Assembly (NCBI GenBank): GCA_965662175.1
Contig: CBFIGT010000033.1
Coordinates: 1-20,502 of the forward strand
Source: Arcobacter sp.
Lineage (GTDB): Bacteria; Campylobacterota; Campylobacteria; Campylobacterales; Arcobacteraceae
DNA: 20,502 nucleotides
Direction: 5' to 3'
The position numbers and the translations under genes were made by a program. A model generated the notes under the pieces. That model was not told where the DNA came from. It ran no database searches and saw only the letters and a list, made by a program, of their open reading frames with translations. Each line of letters opens with the position of its first letter. Position 1 is the stretch's first letter. Positions 16,976 to 19,707 of the stretch are shown here, in pieces.

Positions 16976-17100
16976 TTTTGATATCCAATTCACACAAATT
17001 TTAATAATAGAATTTATCTAAGTAGTATAGTAGAACTATTTTAATGACCAACTTAGTGGATATCAAATATTATCACAAGATTGAAAGAGCAAGCCATCTA

Positions 17101-17190
17101 AAAGATAGGGCATTGTATAATTCAGATCATAACTACTTTACAGATAATAACGTAAGAAAAAATATTAAAAAATAGGCAGGATTTTAGACT
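17101..17190 (+). pseudogene. Highly degenerate remnant of a tyrosine integrase 3' end (copy A)
   Basis: Aligns by eye with 19136-19286: CATTGTATAATT identical (17111-17122 vs 19146-19157) and a 26/27 match (17157-17183 vs 19253-19279). Confidence 0.65.
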
Positions 17191-17345: not shown

Positions 17346-17984
17346 ATGAAAACAATTGAATTAAGAAATGCCTTACCATTGTCCATATTTTCTCACGAGA
17401 TGCTTTACTCATTACTTGAAAAATCAGTTAGTAATGTCAATGATAAAATCTCAAATCTTGTAAAAAGTGGTGAACTAATAAGACTAAAAAAAGGTTTTTA
17501 CACTTTTTCTAAAGCTTATCTTACAAGACCGATTGATTTAATCAGTGTTGCAAACACACTTTATACACTATCTTATGTATCATTTGATTATGCATTAAGC
17601 TACTATGGAATGATACCTGAACGAGTAAGTGAAATAACATCAGCTACAAGTAAAAATGAAAAACTTTTTGATACTCCAATAGGAAGATTTAGTTATAAAA
17701 AAGTACCACTTCAAGCTTATTCATTAGGTGTTGATTGGATTTATGATGATGTAGATGGTGGAAGATTTATAGCCACACCCGAGAAAGCTTTGTGTGACAA
17801 AATTCGATATGATAGAGGTATTGGCACGCTTACACAAGGTGCAATGCTTGAATATCTAAAATATGATTTACGACTAGATATTATAAAGCCATTGAATAGC
17901 CATCCTATAGAAGAGATTGCAACCGCATATAGATCTAAAAATTTAAAAACTCTCTCAGTAGTAATCAAAAAAGGTAAATTATGA
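17346..17984 (+). CDS. abiEi: Type IV toxin-antitoxin antitoxin, AbiEi family
   Basis: N-terminal wHTH-like KISNLVKSGELIRLKKGFY, SYVSFDYALSYYGMIPE, ATPEKALCD; ATGA overlap with a downstream AbiEii gene. Confidence 0.88.
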   Translation: MKTIELRNALPLSIFSHEMLYSLLEKSVSNVNDKISNLVKSGELIRLKKGFYTFSKAYLTRPIDLISVANTLYTLSYVSFDYALSYYGMIPERVSEITSATSKNEKLFDTPIGRFSYKKVPLQAYSLGVDWIYDDVDGGRFIATPEKALCDKIRYDRGIGTLTQGAMLEYLKYDLRLDIIKPLNSHPIEEIATAYRSKNLKTLSVVIKKGKL

Positions 17985-18868
17985 CACATCCAGCACTTAT
18001 AAAAATGTTAGAAAAATATGATTTGACAAATTCCAATAGTAGCTATGATGCGCTGAGAGAGATTTTACAAGAGATAGTATTACTTGGACTTTATGATGCA
18101 GGTTTTTTTAAACATGCCACTTTTTATGGTGGGACGGCTCTTAGAATACTGCATAATCTTCCAAGGTTTTCAGAAGACTTGGATTTTTCACTTCTTGAAA
18201 GTAATCGTGATTTTAACCTAAAACCTTACGAAGAAGGGATTATATCAACTTTAAAAGCTTTTGGGTTTGATGTAACAATAGAGATAAAAGAAAAAAATAA
18301 CGATAGTGCTATAGCTTCAGCTTTTGTAAAAGGTAACACGATTGGGCATCTTATAAATATAAACGCACCAAAGGATATAACAAATAAGATTCATAGAGAT
18401 CAAGCGGTAAAAATAAAACTAGAAGTGGATACAAACCCACCACTAGAGTTTGAAACAGCAAATACCATACGACTAACACCAAGACCATTTTCAATAAATG
18501 CTTTCACTTTACCATCATTATTTGCAGGTAAAATGCATGCAATTCTTTGTCGTGCATGGAGCACAAGACCAAAGGGGCGAGATTGGTATGATTTAGTTTG
18601 GTATATAGCAAATGATGTTGAGCTTGACTCTATTCATTTAAAATCAAGACTCTCTCAAAGTTGTAAGTATTTAGAAGAGAACAATATACAAATACCAAGT
18701 GAGCTTTCAAAAGAAACTATAAAAGATCTTCTTTTACAAAGAATAGAAAGTCTTGATGTAGAAAAAGCAAAAAATGATGTACAAGCTTTTATAAAAGATA
18801 TAAGAGAGATTGAACTTTGGTCTAAAGAGTTTTTTGTGGCAGTGATAGAAAATATGGAAGTTAGATAG
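17981..18868 (+). CDS. abiEii: Type IV toxin-antitoxin toxin, AbiEii/AbiGii nucleotidyltransferase
   Basis: FYGGTALR, RFSEDLDFS, KIKLEVD, AGKMHAIL, KGRDWYDL motifs of the DNA pol beta-like NTase toxin family. Confidence 0.92.
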   Translation: MTHPALIKMLEKYDLTNSNSSYDALREILQEIVLLGLYDAGFFKHATFYGGTALRILHNLPRFSEDLDFSLLESNRDFNLKPYEEGIISTLKAFGFDVTIEIKEKNNDSAIASAFVKGNTIGHLININAPKDITNKIHRDQAVKIKLEVDTNPPLEFETANTIRLTPRPFSINAFTLPSLFAGKMHAILCRAWSTRPKGRDWYDLVWYIANDVELDSIHLKSRLSQSCKYLEENNIQIPSELSKETIKDLLLQRIESLDVEKAKNDVQAFIKDIREIELWSKEFFVAVIENMEVR

Positions 18869-18875
18869 TTTTGCC

Positions 18876-19062
18876 ATGACACTTCAAGAACTCCATCATA
18901 AACTACAATATTTAGAATCTCAAAACTAGCGAATAGCGGTTTTGCAAAGCAAAAATTTTCCTTGAAAAAGTACTACTTGAAAATGAGATTTTAGAAACCA
19001 AAAACTAAATAGAACAACTTTCTCTTTTTACAAAAGAGCAAAAAATTGAACTTTTTAAATCA
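18876..19062 (+). pseudogene. Disrupted 5' remnant of a third islet gene
   Basis: ATG 7 nt after the abiEii stop. Removing 18926-18968 gives MTLQELHHKLQYLESQKVLLENEILETKN*IEQLSLFTKEQKIELFKS with one internal TAA (19006-19008). Confidence 0.5.
18926..18968. repeat. Short hairpin-containing dispersed element, copy 1
   Basis: CTAGCGAATAGCGGTTTTGCAAAGCAAAAATTTTCCTTGAAAA; shares AGCGGTT..GC(A/G)AAGCAAA..TTTCCTTGAAAA with 19187-19223. Confidence 0.7.
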
Positions 19063-19310
19063 ATCAAATGAATCTTTCTATAGTCATGACATCATAGGCA
19101 AGAGATTTAGGGAGATTATAAAACAAAGCGGTGTGAAAGAGAGACCATTGTATAATTTAAGACATACTTTTGCTTCACAGATGATAAGCCGAGAGCGGTT
19201 GCGAAGCAAAGTTTCCTTGAAAATTTATCAAAGAAGATGATGAAGTAAGAATAAAAAATATTAAAAAATGGGCAGGATTATTGACACTTTCTCTGAATGA
19301 GAAGTGCTAA
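19046..19310 (+). pseudogene. Tyrosine recombinase/phage integrase C-terminal remnant (copy B)
   Basis: RPLYNLRHTFASQMIS is a box II-like LRHT motif; the expected LGH...Y segment is missing and replaced by the short repeat; a plausible tail KFIKEDDEVRIKNIKK resumes in another frame at 19221. No N-terminal part. Confidence 0.8.
19187..19223. repeat. Short hairpin-containing dispersed element, copy 2
   Basis: AGCCGAGAGCGGTTGCGAAGCAAAGTTTCCTTGAAAA, containing TTGC-GAA-GCAA. Confidence 0.7.
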
Positions 19311-19335
19311 AGCCCTAAAAATAAGGGTTTATAAG

Positions 19336-19707
19336 GTGCAGATACGAGTTTATTATGAAGATACAGATTGTGGTGGAGTTGTTTATCACTCCAATTATTT
19401 AAATTTTTGTGAAAGAGCTAGAAGTGAACTTTTTTTTCAAAAGGGTTTATCTCCTCATAATCAAAATGAATTTTTTGTTGTAAAATCACTAGAGGCTAAT
19501 TATATATCTCCTGCTTTATTTGGAGATATTTTAGAAGTTGAAACTAAACTTGTTTCAAAGAAATCAGCCTCTTTAGTTTTATTTCAAGAGATAAAAAAAG
19601 ATGATAAAACTATTTTTACATTAAATGTGAAAGTTGCTTATTTAAAAGATACTAAACCATCTAAAATTCCAAATAAATTGTTTGAGGTATTCCAAAATGA
19701 AAATTAA
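19336..19707 (+). CDS. ybgC: YbgC/FadM family acyl-CoA thioesterase
   Basis: IRVYYEDTDCGGVVYHSNYLNFCERAR hotdog-fold signature. GTG 19336 preferred as start (AAGGG upstream) over ATG 19297. Confidence 0.92.
   Translation: MQIRVYYEDTDCGGVVYHSNYLNFCERARSELFFQKGLSPHNQNEFFVVKSLEANYISPALFGDILEVETKLVSKKSASLVLFQEIKKDDKTIFTLNVKVAYLKDTKPSKIPNKLFEVFQNEN

Follow-up and report, generated by a model that had tools for sequence, protein, structure and literature searches.

The two short repeats at the right edge of an island in the window, the whole stretch of 20,502 nucleotides analysed here (G000:C33:1-20502), belong to a family of tiny insertion modules that is widespread in Arcobacter, Sulfurimonas and related bacteria, across Campylobacterales. 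It is all but certain that this family represents a mobile insertion element. The family is apparently undescribed, its kind being known but mechanistically unexplained: Rfam holds no relevant match, and literature searches, with most subscription journals and the figures and supplements of PMC3733652 outside their reach, found no published description, in line with the first-pass annotation, which could not assign the repeat to a named family. As to how it moves, the preferred reading, to which we give roughly even chances, is that a non-coding module of 37-45 bases inserts precisely and in one orientation at C-AAA, moving as folded single-stranded DNA that is cut and rejoined by an enzyme acting in trans and probably guided by pairing between its TTTC and the A-runs at the junctions.

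The sequence neighbouring the window matches Arcobacter plasmids, and a BLAST search against plasmids and phages returned the helicase plus chance matches only. Along the island a PLD/helicase DUF3427 gene is followed by an AbiEi/AbiEii-like pair, gene relics and a YbgC-like thioesterase gene (Table 1). The primase-helicase relic is interrupted by copy 1, contains a stop codon at 19006-19008 and breaks off near 19061; a 10-base stretch shared with the integrase relic marks the fusion of the two. The block made of the AbiEi/AbiEii-like pair and the AEP-TOTE primase-helicase is conserved in relatives (window 17346-19061; L010, L017, L019, L024). The tyrosine-integrase family stands directly 5' of the YbgC-like gene in several Arcobacteraceae (window 19052-19340; L003, L004, L005, L008), and an attachment site at the 5' end of that gene is likely. 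A second, more eroded integrase 3' relic lies on the other side of the AbiE-like pair (window 17078-17189), with 70% and 89% identity to parts of 19113-19285, which suggests that related islands integrated repeatedly at the ybgC-like gene.

Table 1. Features at the right edge of the island, in window positions, with the evidence for each.
Feature	Position	Strand	Evidence
Copy 1: complete 43-nt module, decayed, frameshifts the primase-helicase gene	18922..18964	+	Empty alleles; match to covariance model R1, E 2e-12
Copy 1 target base C, immediately 5' of the insertion point	18921..18921	+	C at -1 in 121/136 sites
Copy 1 target AAA, 3' side (2-3-base A core seen at both junctions)	18965..18967	+	Joint fits 3 letters either side
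Copy 2: remnant of a 39-nt module (its right 26 nt), with 11-nt GCGAAGC hairpin	19194..19219	+	Alignment with G077 and intact integrases; R1, E 5e-5
Copy 2 target AAA, 3' side, inside integrase TKF codons	19220..19222	+	Filled/empty comparison
Primase-helicase relic: 5' fragment of an AEP-TOTE primase/SF2 helicase gene	18876..19061	+	Homologue L011 has PF22548 and PF04851
Integrase relic: 3' end of a tyrosine integrase, carries copy 2	19052..19300	+	Homologue L003 has PF00589

Copy 1 is laid out as AAAA-CT, A-GC-GAATA-GC-GG, a 15-nt hairpin, AT-TTTC and CTTG, and it has decayed: the loop is AAA in place of GAA and a covarying stem pair is broken. In an alignment with empty alleles from four relatives exactly these 43 bases are missing, and a contig of run X4 is a close allele that skips exactly 43 bases, passing from 18921 to 18965. 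Both copies are also present, with 6 and 4 differences, on contigs of X2, an independent run, which shows that neither is an assembly artefact. The first-pass annotation had recognised copy 1 but placed it at 18926-18968, four bases too far to the right. Its proposal that excision rejoins a reading frame holds for the 5' piece of the primase-helicase gene, but the same frame then runs into the stop codon named above and ends with the fragment.

Copy 2 was inserted, as 39 nt, at the same integrase site in G000 and G077, two codons past the Tyr of the STY motif, which we take to be the catalytic residue of the tyrosine integrase. G077 retains the whole copy as well as the region from the LGH position (reading LEH there) to the Tyr, and the two genomes share the same 11-nt hairpin and a G-to-A change upstream of the copy. 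Relative to G077, 83 nt are missing from G000, either 68 of the host and 15 of the element or 70 and 13; this deletion took LGH...Y together with the left 13-15 nt of copy 2. The earlier span of 19187-19223 did contain the element, but its first seven letters (19187-19193) are integrase sequence, and the loss of LGH...Y, which had been tied to the insertion, is due to the later deletion, as G077 makes plain. Insertion thus struck both genes, the primase-helicase gene and the integrase of an island at the ybgC-like gene, but most of the damage came afterwards, from deletions that fused and eroded the two. The 39-nt insertion of G077 keeps the frame open, having TGG where other copies have TGA, and adds 13 residues to the integrase relic (L006, G077:C2:87421-87464).

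That the two repeats are related was borne out, since a core pattern common to both has two matches in the window and none in 100 shuffles, and the difference in stem length noted at the outset (hairpins of 15 and 11 nt) is genuine and usual for the family. Scanning this 94%-complete genome by pattern, with mismatches and by covariance model found the two copies and no third, the next match of the model after those two standing at E 0.15. A count of only two, which had been named as pointing to a local duplication, is literally what is seen, yet the idea of a mobile element stands, because the copies are of different subtypes and the family lies at >100 unrelated sites elsewhere. The element is also absent from intact homologues of the disrupted genes. 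Although two copies set 270 bases apart are all that this genome holds, a local duplication or repair scar peculiar to the island deserves next to no weight: copy 2 is common to G077, the subtypes differ, and the family recurs with precise empty alleles at many unrelated sites (136-196 unique sites outside this genome, depending on the set). The precise filled/empty pairs and the GNA mini-hairpin folding support the original proposal of a tiny non-autonomous mobile element. The exact 25-nt pattern first offered for searching was found in 0/60 relatives, being too strict because the hairpin varies within the family.

A DNA search with 432 bases around both copies against 184 genomes of the same bacterial family found that copy 1 recurs alone in other genera, at sites unrelated to this one, that the flanking genes exist free of copy 1, and that G077 has a full copy at the copy 2 site. 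Left-end patterns matched 32/184 of these genomes (control 0), two of the matches (L033, L034) being chance on inspection, 35/401 genomes of the order (control: 4 single matches), and 18/61 and 15/221 genomes in two further families. In GTDB, searched with the CTAG variant only, 89 stretches matched, mostly Campylobacterota by title, with chance matches elsewhere; a further 9 matches came from phage or viral contigs. Scans of viral sequences gave 0 matches to the tandem junction and 7 to the sister left end, all chance by context. Two Vibrio-like, non-Campylobacterota loci (L261, L297) share the same left 19 letters, followed by long inverted repeats; they were set aside, as their architecture differs, and no transposase frame was seen beside them.

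The first covariance model, R1, exposed sister variants and led to a broadened model, R2. At E <= 1e-4, R2 detected the module in 47/149 other genomes of the bacterial family and in 59/150 of family f15, with 40 candidates scored per genome and E-values that are rough, being without a decoy-genome control. The highest counts were 31 copies in G108, 28 in G109, 26 in G122, 25 in G035, 24 in G739, 23 in G760 and 20 in G786. Copy number is lineage-specific, with 25-31 in three of four g9 genomes and none in 102/149 other family genomes. A rule-based finder recovered 276 modules in 592 loci and 0 in reversed sequences.

With slashes marking the junctions, the module can be written [C]/AAAA-XY-A-(small hairpin)-GR-(variable hairpin)-Y'X'-TTTC-(2-4 nt)-G or GT/AA(A). 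It measures 36-49 nt by the rule-based finder, most often 39, and typically 37-45 nt. XY pairs with Y'X': position 5 is complementary to its partner, a base left free in the search, in 134/136 unique sites (74 G-C, 60 C-G). In an alignment of 33 gap-free copies, which are related sequences selected for C or G at two covarying positions, 98.9% of cells pair, a value reached by 0/500 shuffles and compared with 31-46% in slid controls. Here 4/11 pairs change on both sides, rising to 8/11 in a model-fitted alignment of 64 copies that itself leans towards structure; the pairing counts of the rule-based finder are conditioned on pairing and were left out of the covariation evidence. The DNA minimum-energy fold is the same three-way junction for 5 of the 6 copies listed. 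The window copies alone, both decayed, fold no better than shuffles (z about -1.2).

The central loops of 136 copies comprise 64 GNA, 7 GNNA, 21 TTTA, 17 AAA, 26 other and 1 reverse-complement GNA, and mismatches read on the + strand are G-T in 16 cases vs A-C in 4. In the main family the small hairpin reads GC-GAATA-GC; the sisters have GC-GAA-GC, GG-GTA-CC, GA-GAA-TC and others, exchanging GC/GC, GG/CC, GA/TC or AC/GT around GNA loops. Judged by its compensatory changes, the module folds as a covarying three-way junction with DNA-type GNA loops. According to PMC13037366, mini-hairpins with GNA loops have a much higher stability as DNA than as RNA, d(GCGAAGC) melting at 76.5 C vs 39 C for r(GCGAAAGC), and they resist nucleases. 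In the preferred reading the + strand would be the folded species, and as DNA, because GNA, GNNA and GNNNA loops occur on that strand only.

The loops also bear on whether an RNA copy is moved by a reverse transcriptase (RT) of retron, DGR or group II type, which we consider distinctly unlikely. Such a route had reportedly been proposed for the SDRs of Nostoc, and SDRs likewise insert without a scar, nest and lie embedded in other repeats; tolerated G-T pairs would also fit. RTs were found in two of the five highest-copy genomes and, counting carriers only, in 9/19 carriers, five of them DGR-like by sequence or context. One of these DGR-like RTs, in the 28-copy genome G109, comes with an accessory gene and is flanked by two modules, the first lying upstream and the second at the stop codon of the RT (L626, G109:C37:1-2890). 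Against this, the GNA triloops that are strongly stable in DNA are much weaker in RNA (PMC13037366), the RTs are of mixed, unrelated types, and none was found in the eight carriers G035, G739, G547, G119, G468, G764, G158 and G754. Copies also lie in both orientations to host genes, 25 on the same strand and 11 on the opposite one.

Filled/empty pairs at many unrelated sites show nothing lost or gained beyond the module, with a shared core of AA or AAA. C stands at -1 in 121/136 sites vs a 15% background, G at -1 occurs mainly where the target is the end of another module, and there is no upstream target consensus apart from -1. Modules ending in G lie before AAA in 98/100 sites and those ending in GT before AAT in 10/20 (Fisher p 9e-8), or 161/164 and 12/32 in a wider set, related copies being counted in these statistics, so that the observations are not independent. 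The last base thus covaries with target base +3, as expected if TTTC reads the junction bases or if cutting takes place a set number of bases from the terminal G. The sequence does not fix where within the A-run the cut is made: a cut after CAA(A), a cut at C/AA and a 2-base duplication all fit.

These junctions leave little room for a classical MITE, mobilised by a DDE transposase that duplicates 2-4 bases of the target (AA becoming AAAA). A-runs do stand at both ends and copies are often in or near IS elements, but the target has an orientation and is not palindromic, and the length of the repeated A-run, 2 to 4 bases, depends on the base with which the module ends. Paired-end DDE substrates are, in addition, far longer than a unit of about 40 nt. 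No terminal inverted repeats exist under any choice of ends, and because inverted ends are absent this highly improbable reading is largely refuted. A resemblance of the junction to the arms of Epsilon dif sites was likewise rejected, because the targets lack dif-like arms. Integron attC sites are crossed over by IntI at G/TT (AA/C on the other strand), whereas the module junction is C/AA.

Head-to-tail arrays consist of identical units (periods 37-45) or of mixed variants. One site has an old copy preceded by new variants that differ from case to case (L251, L272, L292), a sign of repeated insertion in addition to slippage. No circle was observed: an end-to-start joint is present in runs X2 and X4 but fits a tandem array or a circle equally well. 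Mixed arrays of two or three variants, often at contig ends, occur at L574, L601 and L607 (G108, G035), and the genomes of genus g9 that hold mixed arrays are small, at 1.4-1.5 Mb.

A nearby ORF was present at 111/136 sites, giving 110 distinct ORFs for a Pfam scan. By classes that we assigned ourselves, the 65 named nearest ORFs comprise 25 for transposases, integrases or RTs, 12 for defence, toxin-antitoxin, restriction or phage-accessory functions, and 28 core genes. The earlier suggestion that the element inactivates genes of incoming islands is too narrow, with 28/65 named neighbours being core and many copies in frame or intergenic. The reading frame is kept in 24/36 insertions inside open frames vs 33/67 elsewhere, a weak difference. 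In several lineages the module sits within larger palindromic repeats or IS copies, and riding in these inflates some counts (G122, G547, G786). For example, sister modules lie at C/AAAA inside a larger multicopy palindromic intergenic repeat (L557-L563 in G786; L553-L555, L567-L571), and in G547 the module is embedded likewise in an inverted-repeat element of roughly 100 bases. An IS1182-type transposase lineage in a dense IS graveyard carries the module and has multiplied with it (L150, L151, G122:C28). Modules and other short repeats have landed repeatedly upstream of metK in several genera (L055, L082, L090, L214, L599).

The search for a mobilising enzyme found no partner. As most carriers are MAGs, its results mean 'not found' and not 'absent'. 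ORF clustering beside 96 and 172 loci gave no recurring partner, only targets (IS3, IS1182, IS110 and IS256 types, core genes), and neither did the Pfam scan of the 110 neighbouring ORFs and of 75/148 ORFs of high-copy genomes. The involvement of HUH enzymes proposed at the outset is plausible from geometry, but PF01797 (Y1) was not found in four of the five highest-copy genomes, namely G108, G035, G109 and G739 (24-31 copies; 94-100% complete). It was found in 14/26 carrier genomes and not in the complete or near-complete carriers G425, G215, G406, G739 and G035. Only 1/25 Y1 loci has a nearby copy, a single one, and resident Y1 genes were rejected as the mover, since those in carriers have their own unrelated flanking repeats.

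Other candidates fared similarly. IS110/IS1111 (PF01548) was found in 4/16 carriers and in none of G108, G035, G109 and G739; an integron-type integrase (PF13495, SAM domain) in 1/5 high-copy genomes; and DUF559 in 3/16 carriers, inside long proteins. GIY-YIG matches were UvrC-sized frames in all 5 genomes searched plus one short frame in G119, at a locus without a copy. Elements of the IS91/ISCR type have a Y2 transposase and a CTTG/GTTC target 5' of the element; their profile, PF04986, matched 0/5 carriers and was also silent in all 14 controls. No autonomous parent with the same ends was found among the left-end matches (89 in GTDB, CTAG variant only; at least 122 in metagenomes; 9 in viral contigs), and those without a near right end are truncations, secondary IS insertions or chance matches.

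A dedicated enzyme may not be needed if nuclease-resistant folded strands were patched into gaps or lagging-strand A-runs via the A core by host replication, repair or transformation, with arrays arising by slippage. We regard this as unlikely, even though no transposase-like family tracks the element, high-copy genomes hold the module mostly beside core genes, arrays of identical units fit slippage and the mini-hairpins resist nucleases (PMC13037366). Exact ends at >100 sites, C at -1, the covariation of end and target and the mixed-variant arrays point instead to sequence-specific cutting, and a lineage-specific copy number is not readily given by a universal host process.

There are partial parallels among known repeats. 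SDR1-8 of Nostoc punctiforme were reportedly described by Elhai et al. in 2008 as ultra-small, non-coding, structured and dispersed, with a target preference, nested or embedded in other repeats and with an unknown mover. The module agrees with SDRs, as these are defined, in being <100 nt, dispersed and mobile by filled/empty comparison, with a conserved fold and nested or embedded copies. Compared by description only, it differs in its length of 37-45 nt, its three-way junction with two GNA-type hairpins, its C/AAA target and its phylum. SDRs are described as some 20 bp long and perhaps mobile (PMC2884548), and SDR5, of 21 nt, is tied to HIP1 and has no known function (PMC13756078).

Similarly, the REP, BIME and REPIN repeats that accompany TnpA-REP are bulged palindromes of 20-50 nt that act as single strands, form arrays and are sometimes in frame, as outlined in PMC8266576 and PMC6006769. 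The module is also a strand-specific imperfect palindrome of 36-49 nt, and it could be imagined to depend on a conventional RAYT or IS200/IS605 TnpA, the gene for which would in most carriers be mobile, lost or missing from the assembly, several carriers being incomplete MAGs. The word GTAG in 74/136 copies, the length of 37-45 nt, the bulged stem, the arrays and the GTAG repeats reported from Sulfurovum (PMC3733652) would all suit such an origin. It nevertheless appears very doubtful. The REP tag, a GTAG-type tetranucleotide 5' of the hairpin, is unpaired according to the text of PMC3733652, whereas the first base of the GTAG or CTAG word of the module is paired and covarying (GT, CT, CA, CC; at position 5, of 136 copies, 74 have G and 62 have C), versions with CTAG, CAAG and CCAG being equally common. 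The TnpA-REP core is CT in the account of PMC8266576, and that of the module in filled/empty pairs is AA(A). Moreover, module arrays are direct and head-to-tail, not REP/iREP doublets, genomes mostly hold 1-7 copies, no flanked tnpA-REP and thus no REPtron was seen, and Y1 was not found in complete or near-complete carriers. The module does not, therefore, qualify as a REP in the strict sense. It may still overlap a Sulfurovum GTAG family of PMC3733652, a comparison made by text description; those families have an unpaired tag.

IS200/IS605 elements (IS608, ISDra2) and their non-autonomous derivatives insert strand-specifically and without a scar by a short motif, with guide pairing (PMC8266576), as the module may do, and similar words stand at the target and the element end (CAAA and GAAA in the module). 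The whole module, however, is about 40 nt, with no separate left-end and right-end hairpins. In the text of PMC8266576, IS200/IS605 and TnpA-REP pick cut sites via DNA-DNA guide pairing on single strands, with the guide 5' of the hairpin in known HUH systems; the candidate guide of the module lies 3' of its hairpins. No IS200/IS605 element with the module's ends was found, and the IS200 of this genome has unrelated ends. One IS200-type element there has split a gene resembling nitrate transporters near its 5' end (L173, G000:C32:248-3607).

The steps that lead from the fold to an enzyme are inferred. On the preferred reading of a folded single strand moved in trans, the unit would leave its site either as a small circle or as a single strand in linear form, and its joined ends would re-form G-AAAA and pair with TTTC. 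A modelled 39-nt circle is unfavourable, at a mean of +0.5 kcal/mol, in a model that ignores GNA stabilisation. Cutting at or inside C or G followed by AA(A), in both target and donor, would give scar-free exchange, as in the peel-and-paste of IS200/IS605, and the joined ends would themselves be a target, allowing arrays to build up. The enzyme would act in trans and would not be a Pfam-detectable Y1 resident in the richest genomes. More tentatively, and at less than even chances, the modules could represent a superfamily of self-guiding single-stranded DNA replicators of about 40 nt, among the smallest mobile elements known, in which TTTC reads the target, the joined ends are their own target and the mover is neither Y1/RAYT, IS110, integron integrase nor RT.

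How non-coding repeats far below 100 bases spread is an open question, entirely for SDRs and in part for REPs, and the present family makes it testable. It offers exact ends, a defined target, a structure established by compensatory changes and a natural variant whose last base changes the target, while sister genomes with 0 vs 25-31 copies provide a contrast for finding the enzyme by comparison. There are also consequences for annotation, as the 39-, 42- and 45-nt forms add in-frame peptides (e.g. KVANSGCEANFPR) to core and phage proteins and other module lengths break transposases, integrases and defence genes. If the reading as self-guiding replicators is true, the high-copy lineages g9, g106, g15 and g78 would reveal the long-missing mover of SDR-type repeats and a minimal system for scar-free insertion.
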